A stretch of 46,722 bases of DNA from an uncultured archaeon (GTDB taxonomy: Archaea; Nanohalarchaeota; Nanosalinia; Nanosalinales; Nanosalinaceae): contig CAYQYU010000008.1 of assembly GCA_964421955.1 (NCBI GenBank), forward strand, positions 1 to 46,722, in the 5' to 3' direction. The translations under genes were made by a program, and so were the position numbers. Of this stretch, positions 6,341 to 11,853 are shown in pieces (the first letter of the stretch is position 1; each line of letters begins with the position of its first letter). The notes below the pieces were generated by a model that ran no database searches, had not been told where the DNA came from, and saw only the letters and a program-made list of their open reading frames with translations.

Positions 6341-6835
6341 CTATCCCACCTCATGGAACTCTATCTCGCCCGATTCGATATCCAAAGTTGCTAAGTGAAA
6401 CGGCTCTTCAGCAAACGGGACAGGAATACCTCCCGGGTTGATTTCGATCGTTCCTTCGCTTTCATCTATCTTCTTCTCGTGGGTGTGGCCTCTGAGGACG
6501 TAGTCATAGTTGCCAGAGCTGACAAGTGCTTCAACTATTTCTTCCTCAGTTCCATGGTAGACCGCGATGCTGTTCCCGTCAAACTCCAGCTCCGCAATAT
6601 TGTTGTAGAACTCTCCGAACTCGTTAACCGCAGGTTTCAGGTTCCACTCTCCGTCGTTGTTTCCCCTGACGCAGTAGAAGTCAAAGCTGTCGCGGTCGAA
6701 AAGCTCCGCGGTGAAGGGCGCGACCATATCGCCGCAGTGGATAACCGCGTCAACTTCCTGGGACTCGAAGAACTCTATGGCCTGGCATGTAACATCCAGG
6801 TTGTCGTGGGTGTCAGATATTAGACCGAGCTTCAT
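6341..6835 (-). CDS. YfcE/MJ0936-family metallophosphoesterase
   Basis: ISDTHDN, IHCGD, VRGNND, YHG, GHTH, INPG; true start ATG 6835 just after the gatC stop. Confidence 0.93.
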   Translation of the reverse strand: MKLGLISDTHDNLDVTCQAIEFFESQEVDAVIHCGDMVAPFTAELFDRDSFDFYCVRGNNDGEWNLKPAVNEFGEFYNNIAELEFDGNSIAVYHGTEEEIVEALVSSGNYDYVLRGHTHEKKIDESEGTIEINPGGIPVPFAEEPFHLATLDIESGEIEFHEVG

Positions 6836-6836
6836 T

Positions 6837-7115
6837 TTAGACACTTGGTCCCTTGAACTTTCCGTCCTCCTTGTTACCGGTATTCTTGAACACTTCTTCC
6901 CTGGAGAGGCACTCTTCTTTCTCATCCTCTCTTGTTTCAGGTTCTACTTCTACGGGGTGGAACGCTGGCTCCACATCCTCAGTATCGACCTTTTCAAGCT
7001 GTGAGAACATATTTAGGATCTCCTCAAAGTCCTCTGTAAATTCGTCGGCCTCCCCTTCAGAGACCTCTATACGAGCATTTCTCGCAACTTGCAGGACTTC
7101 TTCTTTATCCGGCAT
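6837..7115 (-). CDS. gatC: Asp/Glu-tRNA amidotransferase subunit C
   Basis: VARNARIE...FEEILNMFSQLEKVDTEDVEP...RED...DGKFKGP; clustered with gatA/gatB. Confidence 0.92.
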   Translation of the reverse strand: MPDKEEVLQVARNARIEVSEGEADEFTEDFEEILNMFSQLEKVDTEDVEPAFHPVEVEPETREDEKEECLSREEVFKNTGNKEDGKFKGPSV

Positions 7116-7215
7116 AAACAATACTGGAAGTCGAAGTTTTTTGTAATCTCCCGCCGGAGGAATGTAGGTAGTGTTCAGAAGCTGTGAACAACGAAAACAC
7201 TAGACATAGGTAACA

Positions 7216-7223
7216 TTTATAAA
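7216..7223 (+). promoter_or_regulatory. Archaeal TATA box upstream of the UUGGGC hairpin element
   Basis: TTTATAAA about 25 nt upstream of the structured element starting near 7249. Confidence 0.55.
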
Positions 7224-7248
7224 CCAGTCTCGAAAATGGTTAACTACA

Positions 7249-7394
7249 AGACTACATTTTCACGCTTGGGCGCGTGAATCACAGATCCGATCAAACTCGT
7301 TTGGGCGCGAGTTGGATCACACGATTCGAATTGGGCTTCGAATCGAACGAAACGTGTAAGTTTGGGCTATTGGTCTAAGTTCTAGGGTAGAATT
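7249..7394 (+). ncRNA. Putative structured RNA (5' leader of ftsZ or stand-alone sRNA) with repeated UUGGGC-loop hairpins
   Basis: Three hairpins (7259-7278, 7294-7313, 7322-7345) have different stems and the same TTGGGC loop; a fourth TTGGGC lies at 7362 and a GGG-loop hairpin at 7378-7394. Confidence 0.65.
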
Positions 7395-7458
7395 ACCTAT
7401 GCCGGTTTAAAAAGGTTAGGTATAGCTCTACCGCACTCGCAAAAAAGGACGATACAAG

Positions 7459-8529
7459 ATGGAATCCATAATCGACAACTCGAAATCCACCACACAGGCG
7501 GAAACTCAAAATCTCGACGACGTAAAAGATGCTAAGATCCTAGTCGTAGGTGCAGGCGGAGCTGGGAACAACCAGGTAACCCGCATCCAGAAAAAAGATA
7601 TCCAGGGAGCAGAAACGGTAGCTATCAACACCGACAAACAGCACCTCGAAATCTCTTCCGCGGACCGGAAGGTTCTAGTCGGAAGAGAACTAACCAAGGG
7701 ACTTGGCGCAGGCGGACATCCAGAGAAGGGTGCCCGGTCAGTAGAAGAGAACCGCGCCGAACTCAGGAAGCTTTTCCAGGACGCGGACATGGTATTTGTA
7801 ACCGCGGGCCTCGGAGGCGGAACAGGAACCGGTGCAGCACCAGTACTTGCAGAGATCGCGAAGAAAGAGGACTGCATAGTAATAGGAACCGTAACAATGC
7901 CGTTCGAGATTGAAGGTGCGCGCATGTCGAAGGCAGAAGACGGCCTCTACAGGCTACGCCAACATGTGGACACCGCAATTGTAATTGAAAACGACCGGCT
8001 GCTCGATATTGCGGGAGATATGCCTCTCGACCAGGCATTCGGAGTAGCGGACGAGCTCATAACAACAATGATCAAGGGCGTTACCGAGACAATCTCGAAG
8101 CCTTCACTCGTCAACCTCGACTACGCGGACGTCAAATCCGTCATGAACGAAGGCGGCGTTGCAGTGGTAGGGTACGGAGAAAGCGACACCAAGAACAAGG
8201 GAGAAGAAGCAATACACGAAGCATTAAGCAACCCGCTACTTGAAGTCGACTTCGAAGGTGCAAACGGAGCGCTGGTACACATCGCCGGCGGCCAGGACCT
8301 CACGCTCAACGAAATCAACGATGTTGGTCAAACGGTACAGGGACGGCTGGATGATCATGCACAGGTCATCTGGGGCGCCCGCGTAAAAGAAGAACTACAG
8401 GGTAAAATCCAGGTTATCTCCATCGTAACAGGAGTAGAATCACCTTACGTCCTCGGAGATGTCGAGGAACAGGAGTCAGAGATGAAAGGAGACGTAAACG
8501 ACCTGGGACTGGAAGTGATGAACGGCTAA
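7459..8529 (+). CDS. ftsZ: Cell division protein FtsZ (FtsZ1-type)
   Basis: VGAGGAGNN, AINTD, GLGAGG, tubulin signature GLGGGTGTG, PFEIEG, NLDYADV, QVIWGAR. Confidence 0.98.
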   Translation: MESIIDNSKSTTQAETQNLDDVKDAKILVVGAGGAGNNQVTRIQKKDIQGAETVAINTDKQHLEISSADRKVLVGRELTKGLGAGGHPEKGARSVEENRAELRKLFQDADMVFVTAGLGGGTGTGAAPVLAEIAKKEDCIVIGTVTMPFEIEGARMSKAEDGLYRLRQHVDTAIVIENDRLLDIAGDMPLDQAFGVADELITTMIKGVTETISKPSLVNLDYADVKSVMNEGGVAVVGYGESDTKNKGEEAIHEALSNPLLEVDFEGANGALVHIAGGQDLTLNEINDVGQTVQGRLDDHAQVIWGARVKEELQGKIQVISIVTGVESPYVLGDVEEQESEMKGDVNDLGLEVMNG

Positions 8530-8600
8530 TTCCGAAAAGACGAAATTCGGAGACTTTCTGGGTTCCCAGAAAATCTTCGATTTTCGAAAACGATATTTAA

Positions 8601-8760
8601 CCGGGGGAGATCTCACGGGCACAACAATACTCCCTTCCCCCCCCCCAGCCCGGGGATCTCCTCCAGTTTACCTTTATATTCACCGGCAGGCCCTCCGCGA
8701 ACACCCGAAACTCCCCTCCCCCCCCCAACTGCGGAGGCTCGCCATTTTCACCTTATTTCT
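8601..8760 (+). ncRNA. Two tandem stem-loops with near-identical C-rich loops downstream of ftsZ (putative 3' UTR or sRNA element)
   Basis: Stems 8603-8664 and ~8685-8743 enclose ACTCCC(T/C)T followed by C10/C9 and A; each is followed by a similar TTT(C)ACCTT(T)AT tail. Confidence 0.55.
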
Positions 8761-8805
8761 TCCCATCAGGGAAAAACGTTTAATTCTGGTTGACAATCTG
8801 CAAAT

Positions 8806-9318
8806 GTGGCCAAGAAACAGTTCTACCTTAGAATATCCGCGGCACTTCTGCTTTCACTCTCAGCCGCAACAGTGCTATCCACCTCAGCCGAGTACGCGGG
8901 AGTAATCGCGGGAGCATCGGCTATATCCAGCCTGCTCTTGATGCGGTCTGCAGAGAGAACCTCCCGTATGGAAGGCCGCACAGACAGGATGAAGGTAGCG
9001 CTCACAAGTTCGACGGTTCTGTACGAACTTATCCTGCTGCTGGGCGCGGTATCTCTAGCGGTAGTTCCGAAGTACGCCGTCGCAATCGTTTTCGCAGCGG
9101 TCGCATTCACTGAAATCCTGCAGCTCGAGACCGAGCAGAAGCTCAGGACCGCTTTCACACCGGATATAGGCAGGGAGGGTCGAATAGTTGTGCTCGGTGC
9201 ATCGCTCGTGGCCTACAGCTTTAACACCTGGTTCCTGTTCTACGGCATCCTGTTCCTGGCGCTACTGGCGATCTACGACTCGCTCAGGCTGATCCACCAT
9301 ATAAACGACGAGATCTAG
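8806..9318 (+). CDS. Membrane protein, possibly a degenerate CDP-alcohol phosphatidyltransferase homolog
   Basis: About 6 hydrophobic segments; IGREGRIVVL resembles the G..GRxER loop of archaeal CDP-alcohol phosphotransferases; catalytic Asp motif absent. Confidence 0.55.
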   Translation: MAKKQFYLRISAALLLSLSAATVLSTSAEYAGVIAGASAISSLLLMRSAERTSRMEGRTDRMKVALTSSTVLYELILLLGAVSLAVVPKYAVAIVFAAVAFTEILQLETEQKLRTAFTPDIGREGRIVVLGASLVAYSFNTWFLFYGILFLALLAIYDSLRLIHHINDEI

Positions 9319-9516
9319 TCATCGAACTGGTAGCTCATCGAGCAACCTACATCGAACGTGTTTGGATCAACCTCGTTCTCGGTAGGAAGATAACTGGAAT
9401 ACGAGATCTCCAGACAAATATTGTGCTCCCCAGAGTCTTCAAAGTCAGGAAATACACTTACTAGAAGTATAGCTGTTTCCTCAAGTATTTAATTCTTGGT
9501 CGCCCCGGCTATTTTT

Positions 9517-10020
9517 ATGAAGGCTCCAATCTGTAACGTATGTCTCAAGAGCGACCAGCTGTGCTCAGCTTGCCAGGAGAAGCTCGATGAAGGCGAAATA
9601 GACGAGATCGACATCAAAATCTCCCGGATACTCCAGGAACTATCGAACGAGTATGGCTCTCTCAAGGACTCAGAGATAGAGAGAGTCTTCGACACCGAGA
9701 ACGTCGTCGTTATAGTTACCGCGGAAGGAGACGGCGCAAAAGTAGTGGGTAGACAGGGAGAGATAGTGAAGGAGCTTGCAAACCAGATCGATAAATCGAT
9801 TCGCGTGGTGGAACACGCATCGGACGACCTGGAAGTCATCAAGGGTTTACTCTCACCTGCGGAGGTGCAGTCGGTCAACACGGTTTTCGAGCCCGACGGA
9901 GAGTACAAGAAGATAGTAGTCGACGAGGACTACGAGGGCAAGATCAATCTGTCGCAGGAGGAGTTCGAGCACATCGTCGACAAGGTCACAGGAACCGATT
10001 ACAGGCTGGCGTTCGAGTAG
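9517..10020 (+). CDS. Archaeal NusA-like KH-domain protein with N-terminal Zn finger
   Basis: MKAPICNVCLKSDQLCSAC plus KH motif VVGRQGEIVKELA; start refined to ATG 9517. Confidence 0.85.
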   Translation: MKAPICNVCLKSDQLCSACQEKLDEGEIDEIDIKISRILQELSNEYGSLKDSEIERVFDTENVVVIVTAEGDGAKVVGRQGEIVKELANQIDKSIRVVEHASDDLEVIKGLLSPAEVQSVNTVFEPDGEYKKIVVDEDYEGKINLSQEEFEHIVDKVTGTDYRLAFE

Positions 10021-10062: not shown

Positions 10063-11853
10063 ATGCCAACGGAAAAATCGAAGCGCTACATCGTCGTGAT
10101 TGACCAGGACAAGATAGAGCCAGATCTTGCCCAGGAAACTGTAATCAACTTCGACCCGCTGAATCGATCAGGTCAGGAAGGCGGCTTCTACCTCACCGAG
10201 GAAGGTGAGCTGCATATTGATGAGGAAGACGTGATGGAGGCCCACCGGATGGCGATCAAGAAGTACCCCTACGAGGATGCGATAAAGCTCGTGCAGCTGC
10301 CGTACGAGGAAGGCGAAAAAGTACACCAGTTCTCCGACAACTCGTTCAGACTGTACGGTCTACCGGTCCCGGAAGAGGGCCGCGTCGTCGGAGTGCTCGG
10401 GGAGAACGGAACCGGAAAGTCAACCGCGCTAGAAATACTCGCGGGCAAAATCAAGCCGAACCTGGGCCGGTACGATGACGAACCTGAATGGGACGAACTC
10501 GTGAAATACTACAGGGGAACTGGACTCCAGAACCATTTCGAGAAGCTTTCATCGGACAACGTCGAAGCAGCCTTCAAGCCGCAGAAGGTCGAGGTGATTC
10601 CCGAGGTCTACAAAGGTGAAGTCGGAGGACTGCTTGAAGACGCCAGAGAACGTTCAGATATCGAAGAGATTTCCGAAAAACTGGATATCGACCACCTGCT
10701 TGACCGCAAACTGGAAGAACTCTCAGGCGGAGAGTTACAGCGCGTGGCGATCGCATCAACTCTGTTGAAGGATCGAGACATCTACATGATCGACGAACCA
10801 TCCTCTTTCCTCGACGTGAAGCAGCGGTTAAATGTTGCGCGAGAGATCAGGAAGCTCGCGGAAGACGATCGCGCAGTGATTGTCGTAGAACACGATCTCG
10901 CTACGCTTGACCTGGTATCTGACACGGTACACATCTTTTACGGCGATCCCGGGAGTTACGGAATGGTATCGAACTCGTTCTCCTCAAAGAACGGTATCAA
11001 CCAGTATCTCGACGGCCATCTTCCCTCCCATAATTTACGCATACGGGACGAGTCAATCAAGTTCGACCGTTCGAAAAGATCACAGGTCGAGCACAACGCA
11101 ACAGTCCTGAAGTTTCCAGAGTTCAGGAAGGATTTCGGGGAGGACGAGTTCTCGCTAAAGACAGCAGAGGGAGACCTCCACGAAGAAGAGATACTTGCAA
11201 TTTTCGGAGAGAATGGTCTCGGAAAGACCGTGTTCGCAAAGATGCTGGCCGGCGCCATAGAACCTGATGAAGGAGAATCACCCGACTTATCAATCTCCTA
11301 CAAGCCGCAGTACATCGAGGCCGGGGACGAAACAGTGGAAGAGGCGCTGAGAAAACACGTAAATCCTGATTCGCAGGAGTTCAGAACACGCATAGCCGAG
11401 CCCCTGAAACTTACCGGTCTGTATGAGCACAATCTAGAGGAGCTTTCAGGAGGGGAGCTGCAGCGAGTCGCAGTCGCAATTTCCCTTGCAAGGGACGCGG
11501 AAATCTACCTTCTCGACGAGCCAAGCGCATACCTGGATGTCGAGGGAAGAGTCAGTCTCGCGAGGACACTCAAGCGCTTCGCCCGCAAAACAGAAAGGCC
11601 TCTAATGGTGATCGATCACGACCTGCTGATGCTTGACTATATTGCTGATAGAGGAACAGTTTTCAGGGGTGAGCCCGGCGTTCAGGGCGAAAGCACGGAG
11701 CCCTCAAGAATCTCGGAGTCACTTAACAACTTCCTGAAAGAAGTTGATCTGACCTACAGGAAGGACCCGGAAACTGGGAGGCCGCGAGCCAACAAACCAG
11801 GATCACAGAAAGACCAGGAGCAGCGGAAGAAAGGCGAGTTCTATGAGCAGTGA
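10063..11853 (+). CDS. rli: Ribosome recycling ATPase ABCE1/Rli1, cysteine-free variant
   Basis: FRLYGLPVP, two NBDs (GENGTGKS, GENGLGKT), two LSGGELQRVA, DEPS, C-terminal YRKDPETGRPRANKPGSQKD. Confidence 0.96.
   Translation: MPTEKSKRYIVVIDQDKIEPDLAQETVINFDPLNRSGQEGGFYLTEEGELHIDEEDVMEAHRMAIKKYPYEDAIKLVQLPYEEGEKVHQFSDNSFRLYGLPVPEEGRVVGVLGENGTGKSTALEILAGKIKPNLGRYDDEPEWDELVKYYRGTGLQNHFEKLSSDNVEAAFKPQKVEVIPEVYKGEVGGLLEDARERSDIEEISEKLDIDHLLDRKLEELSGGELQRVAIASTLLKDRDIYMIDEPSSFLDVKQRLNVAREIRKLAEDDRAVIVVEHDLATLDLVSDTVHIFYGDPGSYGMVSNSFSSKNGINQYLDGHLPSHNLRIRDESIKFDRSKRSQVEHNATVLKFPEFRKDFGEDEFSLKTAEGDLHEEEILAIFGENGLGKTVFAKMLAGAIEPDEGESPDLSISYKPQYIEAGDETVEEALRKHVNPDSQEFRTRIAEPLKLTGLYEHNLEELSGGELQRVAVAISLARDAEIYLLDEPSAYLDVEGRVSLARTLKRFARKTERPLMVIDHDLLMLDYIADRGTVFRGEPGVQGESTEPSRISESLNNFLKEVDLTYRKDPETGRPRANKPGSQKDQEQRKKGEFYEQ

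Follow-up and report, generated by a model that had tools for sequence, protein, structure and literature searches.

What is the string of hairpins that lies upstream of ftsZ1 in an uncultured member of the Nanohaloarchaeota, and what might it do for the division gene beside it? The locus lies in a stretch of 46,722 nucleotides (nt; contig CAYQYU010000008.1 of assembly GCA_964421955.1), the whole of which we call the window. An earlier note, made from the letters of this DNA alone, had described hairpins with different stems and an identical UUGGGC loop in front of ftsZ and had drawn them together as a cloverleaf. Nanohaloarchaeota have genomes of approximately 1 Mb and are symbionts that time their division with that of a host, and we know of very few cis-regulatory RNAs in archaea. 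The element turns out to be a new RNA family, present across the phylum and tied to ftsZ1, and a second, complementary element was newly found here in the region 3' of the same gene. The observation is real and lies well past chance.

The array occupies the intergenic region between gatC, on the - strand, and the divergently oriented ftsZ1, on the + strand. Its motif copies, and the gene that they precede, are as follows.

7259..7278, + strand: hairpin 1, with a 7-base-pair (bp) stem and a UUGGGC loop (-9.7 kcal/mol alone, z -3.73).
7294..7313, + strand: hairpin 2, with a 7-bp stem whose top pair is U-G and a UUGGGC loop (-7.8 kcal/mol alone, z -2.45).
7322..7345, + strand: hairpin 3, with a 9-bp stem and a UUGGGC loop (-10.9 kcal/mol alone, z -4.15).
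7362..7367, + strand: fourth copy of UUGGGC, with no stable hairpin (-4.0 kcal/mol, z -1.04).
7459..8529, + strand: ftsZ1, 356 amino acids (aa; Pfam Tubulin 1.5e-45, FtsZ_C 3.1e-33; TIGR00065 398.6 bits).

Reading of the sequence and folding both place the three UUGGGC-loop hairpins (7259-78, 7294-7313 and 7322-45) where the earlier note had put them. It had also reported a fourth TTGGGC and a GGG-loop hairpin, and both are present on the + strand (7362-67 and, as TTCTA-GGG-TAGAA, 7380-92), but the fourth motif sits on no stable hairpin; in other genera it becomes a fourth or fifth hairpin. On both strands of the window TTGGGC occurs seven times, compared with 17.19 expected, and four of the seven copies fall within 7266-7367, all of them on the + strand. 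The genome holds 128 copies, only three of which are carried on stems of at least 7 bp, all at the ftsZ1 locus, and the next best stems have 5 and 4 bp. The scarcity of TTGGGC was also considered as a sign of selection and then dropped: 128 copies compare with 475 under a zero-order model, but a maximal-order Markov model (pentamers) gives an observed/expected ratio of 1.02.

The nature of the element was assessed in relatives using two alignments, A1 being a plain MAFFT alignment of 29 sequences and A2 a model-fitted alignment of 51 rows which is biased towards the model. In A1, 87.6% of cells pair, compared with 26.9-46.2% when the 3' partner is slid, and 17 of the 34 pairs change on both sides, a number that none of 500 shuffles reached. 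The corresponding figures for A2 are 88.8% of cells and 28 of 34 pairs, or 21 of 22 for hairpins 1-3. Double-sided changes affect 5/7 pairs of hairpin 1 in A1 and 7/7 in A2, and 6/8 and 8/8 pairs of hairpin 3. Hairpin 2 has the highest sequence conservation among the hairpins, with CTCG/CGAG fixed in 29/29 sequences; its top pair is U-G in 20, U-A in five and unpaired (C-A) in four of the 29 sequences in A1. On the + strand, G-U cells number 123 vs 61 A-C cells, which favours RNA of that strand. Given that the stems covary whilst the loops stay fixed, we read the 5' array as a real + strand RNA. The selection on RNA structure that the earlier note had proposed, from G-U pairs on the + strand and from a loop kept constant on unlike stems, is thus upheld by the covariation, and its idea of a multivalent display of one loop motif is supported by the repeated same-loop hairpins within leaders.

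The overall architecture is another matter. The helix proposed to close a four-way junction (7249-57 with 7354-63) pairs in 57.7% of cells across the 29 relatives, compared with 54.9% in shuffles, of which 66/500 score as high, and 32-51% when the partner is slid. The closure of the minimum-energy fold is likewise unconserved (52.9% vs 55.4%), and RNAalifold returns a consensus without the closing helix. Because that helix is not conserved, the cloverleaf has to be abandoned, and the element is better modelled as a string of 3-5 independent hairpins with 1-3 unpaired copies of the motif, each leader holding 3-9 G3 tracts in all. The TCACA linkers that had been remarked upon between the hairpins are present in this window but are not conserved in relatives (A1).

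How far does the array extend? A covariance model built from 29 sequences finds one copy each in 52 of the 70 genomes available for the phylum and in 46 of the 49 genomes of the window's family, the class-level and phylum-level searches having covered an identical set of 70. Loop conservation and covariation in relatives, which the earlier note had named as a check on its reading, were found. Hairpins with GGGC-type loops are also visible upstream of FtsZ1 orthologues fetched from other families, where they are lost to the stricter filters of the model, and an apparent exception (G040) carries three hairpins with UUGGCG loops. By eye, most of the genomes without a model match can be seen to have a weaker form of the array. 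The array is always beside ftsZ1 and single-copy in the covariance-model search, and a conserved block precedes ftsZ in 44/56 loci. No similar array stands before any of three FtsZ2 paralogues or three outgroup FtsZ genes. At the DNA level, a search of 61 related genomes gave 21 places at E <=4.2e-5, all within the window's family, and the exact pattern of hairpin 2 recovers 26 records from the species collection, 18 from Nanohaloarchaea and eight unrelated.

No known family accounts for the element, as the earlier note had supposed: a search of the whole window against Rfam 15 at gathering scores gave no matches. When the threshold was relaxed to E <=10, positions 6800-7800 gave one chance match, to the long non-coding RNA ZNRD1-AS1_3 (16.9 bits, vs a gathering score of 60), and positions 8480-8900 gave chance matches to small nucleolar RNAs and microRNAs only (<=16.3 bits), with 6C absent. 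Two further identities were rejected for the locus, given that RNase P RNA lies at C12:6170-6475 (49 bits, under its cut-off of 84) and signal recognition particle (SRP) RNA at C1:9831-10094 (124.5 bits). SRP RNA is doubled in two relatives, G068 (L139, L142) and G011 (L141, L143), with copies 3-16 kb apart.

Whether the array belongs to the ftsZ1 message depends upon where its transcript begins and ends. Its promoter, predicted start and nearest translation signal are as follows.

7216..7223, + strand: TATA box P1, TTTATAAA, of the hairpin-array RNA (read from the sequence; conserved).
7247..7250, + strand: predicted transcription start, CAAG (most relatives have TAAG), placed by its distance from P1 and by a conserved T/C-A-A-G in A1.
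7446..7453, + strand: Shine-Dalgarno-like AGGACGAT, 6-13 nt before the ATG (read from the sequence; putative assignment).

Both TATA boxes of the earlier note, TTTATAAA at 7216-7223 and TTTAAAAA (P2) at 7406-7413, are where it had placed them, and its view that the array has its own TATA box with a second nearer ftsZ is borne out by the conservation of both in relatives. P1 lies 243 nt and P2 53 nt upstream of the ftsZ1 ATG, 190 nt apart, and exactly one TTTATAAA is found in each of 44 loci with the 3' block, 225-288 nt upstream of the ATG. Perfect TATA 8-mers are scarce in the genome (25 of TTTATAAA and 40 of TTTAAAAA), and those in front of genes usually begin at a distance of 30-35 nt from the ATG, which makes most genes leaderless. 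The 3' end of 16S rRNA in relatives is GGAUCACCUCC; the assembly itself (G000; 922,649 b, 27 contigs, 98.82% complete) is without 16S or 23S rRNA.

Intrinsic termination in archaea relies on U tracts, and these are avoided in the leader: across 45 leaders (10,722 nt) runs of four or more T number 13, compared with 86.2 +/- 6.4 in dinucleotide shuffles, and runs of five or more number two, compared with 30.0. Because U-tract terminators are nearly absent before ftsZ1, the P1 RNA most likely runs on into the gene as a long 5' leader. The 'leader controlling cell division' of the earlier note is still the most likely role of the array. P2 could also give an ftsZ1 mRNA with a short leader. In the same 45 leaders GGGC is found 204 times, compared with 43.2 in shuffles, and its potential partners are depleted (C3+ runs 5 vs 19.2; GCCC 1 vs 5.9), as if the G-loops had to be kept unpaired.

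The loops themselves change in a concerted manner. We compared 78 distinct leaders, 33 of them from metagenome contigs, with 269 GGGN-loop hairpins between them: 221 loops are GGGC, 41 GGGA and seven other. Within hairpins the loops read UUGGGC, CGGGCA, GGGC or GUGGGA, and the loops of the array show YGGGM. Only five leaders mix GGGC and GGGA, compared with 32.7 expected and a minimum of 25 in 2000 shuffles, a contrast that kinship among the sequences inflates. GGGA needs four origins on a nucleotide tree of ftsZ1 (75 sequences) and two on a protein tree (52 rows). In one lineage (L153) all six motif copies are GGGA, with stems that match those of GGGC-type sisters, one of which has a single changed loop. 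It is these repeated all-loop switches, and not the shuffle figure, that point to one agent reading all the loops of an RNA.

The region behind ftsZ1 offers a candidate for this agent which the earlier note had not seen. A run of at least four C occurs within 300 nt 3' of the stop codon in 69/70 loci, and a C3+[TA]1-2C4+ motif (consensus ACACUCCCCUCCCCCCC, in tracts of the ACUCCCCUCCCCCCC type) is found there in 1-3 copies at 61/68 loci, compared with 0.0073 per 300 nt genome-wide. Such tracts are approximately 100 times rarer elsewhere in the genome, and of only ten genomic runs of at least seven C, two are the C10 and C9 that follow ftsZ1. The C tracts are predicted to be exposed, with an unpaired probability of 0.86 vs 0.47 for all bases, and a stem of at least 9 bp encloses 67 of 88 motif copies, compared with 68 of 440 shuffled controls. 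The 84 stems of at least 7 bp have 70 distinct 5' arms, so that the C-loop hairpins, like the G-loop array, combine variable stems with a constant loop. In the window the minimum free energy (MFE) fold after the stop codon consists of three hairpins (-77.9 kcal/mol, z -5.43), with one C tract in a 27-nt loop and the other in a 30-nt loop.

8599..8668, + strand: C-loop hairpin 1, whose long stem carries a 27-nt loop holding CCCTTCCCCCCCCCC (8632-8646); the enclosing stem has 12 bp.
8685..8743, + strand: C-loop hairpin 2, arms CCTCCGC/GCGGAGG, its 30-nt loop holding ACUCCCCUCCCCCCCCCAA (motif 8713-8726); MFE fold.
8745..8761, + strand: U-rich tract TTTTCACCTTATTTCTT, where the ftsZ1 transcript probably ends (read from the sequence; putative role).

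The motif of C-loop hairpin 2 is the top-conserved block of the 3' region (alignment A3), and U-rich tracts follow the C-loop in relatives too. RNAalifold predicted no pairs for the 3' region, the MAFFT alignment being too gappy, and the C-loop stems were instead sought sequence by sequence. Directly 3' of the stop codon there is in addition a long hairpin without a C-loop (8541-8586, GACGAAAUUCGGAGACUUUCUGGGUUCCCAGAAAAUCUUCGAUUUUCG), the sequence of which recurs in several genera (A3).

The same C motif was also seen behind an unlinked gene. This encodes a 48-aa ribbon-helix-helix (RHH) protein (G000:C6, L204:1027-1173, + strand, 3' flank L204:1174-1235) that scores 21.7 bits against PF01402 and 17.8 bits against the NCBIfam CdrS model, which has a cut-off of 100. 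A TATA box lies approximately 30 nt upstream of it, and the C-rich motif CCTTCCCCCCCCTCCCCTCA and a U tract follow 15 nt after its stop codon. The RHH gene may share a regulator with ftsZ1.

The C-loops behind ftsZ1 are therefore candidate RNA partners for the G-loops, and from these sequences we infer transcript boundaries, a G-loop/C-loop contact and an effect on ftsZ1 that would fit together in the following way. Two RNA display elements that complement each other flank the gene, both on the strand of ftsZ1: the consensus TATA box P1 would drive 3-5 hairpins with YGGGM loops in an RNA that runs into ftsZ1, and 3' of the stop codon 1-2 hairpins with variable stems present large loops holding (A)CUCCCCUCCCCCCC tracts, followed by the U-rich tract. 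Several G-loops would then dock on the C-loops through GGG:CCC, extended by U-A pairs in many lineages (UUGGG:CCCAA). In this genome the contacts would be UUGGG:CCCAA at 8722-8728 and UGGG:CCCA at 8643-8647, and in G040 UUGG:CCAA. Halophiles of the 'salt-in' type hold molar K+ within the cell, and if this physiology applies here the contact should be stable at molar K+. In cis it would join both ends of the ftsZ1 mRNA, whilst in trans the P1 RNA would meet mRNAs that bear C-loops, such as that of the small RHH regulator; in both cases the contact would determine how the division mRNA is translated or how long it lasts.

We propose such direct contact because two very rare and complementary loop motifs flank one gene throughout the phylum, and we regard the core of the proposal, that G-loops touch C-loops RNA to RNA and so couple the two ends of the mRNA, as slightly short of an even prospect. 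A wider version is more doubtful and we would call it a speculation: multivalent kissing would gate division across the phylum, with leader G-loops docking on the C-loops of their own 3' untranslated region (UTR) and possibly on those in the 3' UTR of the CdrS-like RHH regulator, the mRNA being looped and C-to-A switches tuning the strength of the contact. Among the sequences inspected, U mostly precedes the C runs in both loop types. A GGGA loop would for that reason gain a fourth pair, with UCCC, which could in turn be why every switch goes from C to A, with none to U or G.

The genes and sites around the two elements bear on how this proposal is weighed. The divergent neighbour is as follows.

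6837-7121, - strand: gatC (Pfam GatC 2.7e-18).

gatC holds this position in 29/29 distinct loci, and relatives carry a second ftsZ paralogue elsewhere, with approximately 50% identity to ftsZ1. On the strand of ftsZ1, and 3' of it, come an open reading frame (ORF) for a hydrophobic protein of 170 aa without a family match (8806-9318), a gene for a Zn-ribbon/KH 'NusA-like' protein (9496-10020; NF005013 147.4 bits, not reaching the cut-off of 175) and ABCE1 (10063-11853). In 14/14 loci with sufficient flank the KH gene is found 0.2-2 kb downstream of ftsZ1, in the same orientation.

Upstream, the proximal promoter region holds two further inverted repeats.

7380..7392, + strand: TTCTA-N3-TAGAA inverted repeat, with fixed arms and a variable centre; 0/5 pairs covary.
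7397..7425, + strand: inverted repeat CTATGCC/GGTATAG around TATA box P2; 4/7 pairs change on both sides, and pairing is 82.8% of cells in A1 and 76.3% in A2 (z -0.39).

Across relatives the centre of the first repeat reads AGG, TGG, TCG, GGG and others; with its arms unchanged around a variable centre, this repeat resembles a DNA operator more than it does an RNA hairpin. The second could be either an RNA helix or a palindrome flanking the promoter, and we read the last 80 nt before ftsZ1 as the proximal promoter P2 with flanking control sites. TTCTA-N3-TAGAA has two copies only in the genome. The other lies at 8821-8833, inside the ORF at 8806-9318, where TTCTACCTTAGAA is the exact reverse complement of the upstream consensus TTCTAAGGTAGAA; given that it is missing at that place from every relative locus with at least 500 nt downstream (61 rows), it is probably there by chance. 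Five more exact copies of CCCTTCCCCC were found in the genome (C1:103132, C1:149765, C1:155342, C2:34331 and C11:16784), compared with two in all for the reversed control pattern, and for at least two of the five the opposite strand has a start codon approximately 25-30 nt away.

Several observations weigh against a direct contact between the loops. In many lineages the shared complementarity spans just 3 nt (GGG:CCC), the fourth base of the loop, usually C, has no partner in the C motif, and the C motif is constant whatever the loop type, so that the two elements show no reciprocal covariation. Neither the ftsZ1 coding sequence nor the leader 3' block has a column that tracks loop type, which removes an internal partner site from consideration. 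The sequences in all of our counts are related, and the shuffle statistics therefore overstate significance. The conserved P2 allows ftsZ1 mRNAs that lack the array. Because the C motif also follows the unlinked RHH gene, where motif and U tract were present in 6/6 relatives inspected, it may be a 3'-end signal with a protein reader of its own, apart from the G-loops; the motif behind this gene is compatible both with a G-loop RNA acting in trans and with C-loops being read by a separate protein. Finally, a KH-domain gene adjoins the C-loops. KH domains can bind C-rich RNA, and the Zn-ribbon/KH protein is an obvious candidate for a C-loop reader.

In a different account the G-loops offer multivalent docking sites to one RNA-binding protein, as CsrB does, another protein, for example the Zn-ribbon/KH protein, binds the C-loops, and the two RNA elements do not touch. 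The identity of all loops within an RNA and their joint switching suit such an account, as does the nature of the switch, given that an alternation from C to A, two amino bases, is what a protein pocket might tolerate, whereas the wobble-compatible change from C to U is unseen (7 GGGK among 269 loops). The constant position of the KH gene in 14/14 loci, and the presence of the same C motif behind the RHH gene, which would suggest a shared trans factor, point the same way. Against this, no residue of the KH protein follows loop type (8 GGGA-type vs 20 GGGC-type genomes) and none of FtsZ1 does across the four switches, so that neither qualifies as a co-evolving reader. A CsrA gene was also not found, PF02599 giving no matches in the 98.82% complete genome and control matches in 3/14 reference genomes. 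There is no regulon of single YGGGC hairpins to speak of, since only 9 of 82 in the genome are intergenic and three of these nine are those of the ftsZ1 locus. Protein readers would moreover leave unexplained why two rare complementary motifs flank the same gene, and we consider this account possible but unlikely. A separate small RNA seems more improbable still. Here, P1 would make a transcript of approximately 150-190 nt with a role purely in trans, be it sponge or regulator, ftsZ1 would be expressed from P2 only, and the placement of the array would reflect synteny. The two conserved consensus TATA boxes 190 nt apart agree with this, and P2, at -53 and with a Shine-Dalgarno-like site, is a plausible promoter by itself. 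PMC7002113 moreover mentions a conserved nanohaloarchaeal intergenic small RNA of 266 nt, STRG.4577.1, which might be the RNA described here; its sequence and its locus are absent from the main text. The near absence of T4+ runs before ftsZ1 (13 vs 86.2) leaves such a transcript without a U-tract terminator, however, and the array is never found away from ftsZ1 or in more than one copy per genome, although with gatC-ftsZ1 synteny in 29/29 loci this linkage is inseparable from synteny.

Two physical alternatives fare worse. The GGG tracts of four loops could form a K+-dependent quadruplex that compacts the leader, in cells that are presumably rich in K+, and at least four G3 runs are present in 45/46 leaders, the exception being L075 (G040), which has none and carries UUGGCG loops. 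The avoidance of C runs in the leader and the rarity of GGGGGG/CCCCCC, which is among the rarest hexamers of the genome (74 vs 530 expected), would also be in line with this. Three leaders (L065, L179 and L170) have only three G3 runs, however, and two more (L062 and L174) reach four only by counting one beside the ATG; the GG-only loops of one genome, the uniform fourth base, which a quadruplex does not need, and the many motifs held in 4-nt loops closed by U-A pairs make a G-quartet very improbable. An element acting as DNA, be it a set of transcription-factor sites, a cruciform or a replication element, we regard as scarcely credible. All of the sites do lie within a promoter-rich intergenic region, and the neighbouring TTCTA-N3-TAGAA behaves like a DNA operator, but the arms of hairpins 1-3 covary about a fixed, asymmetric centre, which is the opposite of a protein-bound DNA palindrome, G-U cells are twice as frequent as A-C cells on the + strand, and every copy of the motif has one orientation.

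Other candidate partners of the G-loops were tried and rejected. In 16S rRNA no GCCC-to-UCCC site tracks loop type, a comparison of three GGGA-type with four GGGC-type complete genomes revealing one fixed difference. SRP RNA has UGGGCG near its 5' end, within a helix and essentially unaltered between the two loop types. Mimicry of tRNA-Gly or of glycine codons was dropped since glycine codon use in ftsZ1 is alike in the two types (GGA 0.62 vs 0.57; GGC 0.21 vs 0.24). Aragorn predicts 40 tRNA genes in the genome, 29 of them with an intron, and a single tRNA-Gly (UCC).

Several known systems resemble parts of this arrangement. CsrB/RsmZ RNAs also make a multivalent display, repeating one short G-rich loop motif on numerous hairpins whose stems differ, but GGA is missing from 221 of the 269 loops here, which are GGGC, and only the 41 GGGA loops contain it; there is in addition no CsrA gene found, and the array is fixed beside one gene without a terminator of its own. 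The guanidine-II (mini-ykkC) riboswitch shares tandem small hairpins with covarying stems and an identical conserved loop, and its loops make loop-loop contacts; it differs in having two hairpins with self-pairing ACGR tetraloops, whereas UUGGGC is not self-complementary, occurs in 3-9 copies and gave no match in Rfam. A T-box likewise has a long structured leader and a loop with a triplet-like motif, and UGGN, with GGC or GGA, could in principle read a tRNA, but the absence of an Rfam match, of a link to glycine codon use and of a second tRNA-contacting domain in what was seen here sets it apart.

For the 3' element the closest likeness is to the 6C RNA of Actinobacteria, in which hairpins offer unpaired C-rich loops to G-rich targets; this small RNA is reported to bind multiple mRNA targets via these loops (PMC6486639). 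The C-loops described here belong to the 3' region of an archaeal ftsZ1, span 27-30 nt with runs of C9-C10, and would face an ordered array of hairpin loops rather than a ribosome-binding site, so the resemblance would be functional only, amounting to C-rich loops on hairpins. A functional interaction between 5'-UTR and 3'-UTR has been described for translation control in haloarchaea, where both UTRs are reportedly needed together (Brenneis and Soppa 2009, PMC2636863). At ftsZ1, both elements show conservation throughout a phylum, and each has a defined motif complementary to that of the other. Our literature search returned no paper on this element and none on a cis-regulatory RNA of an archaeal cell-division gene.

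Taken together, the array and the C-loops suggest a new RNA-based control of archaeal cell division, and the concerted and repeatedly independent switching of the loops is in itself an unusual evolutionary signal. If proteins rather than RNA read the loops, then both motifs would be ready baits with which to find them. A contact between the loops could give a defined mechanism to the older finding of cooperating haloarchaeal 5' and 3' UTRs, and if the kissing reading is true, it would be the first case of a prokaryotic division gene with a defined RNA-RNA circuit between its 5' and 3' ends.

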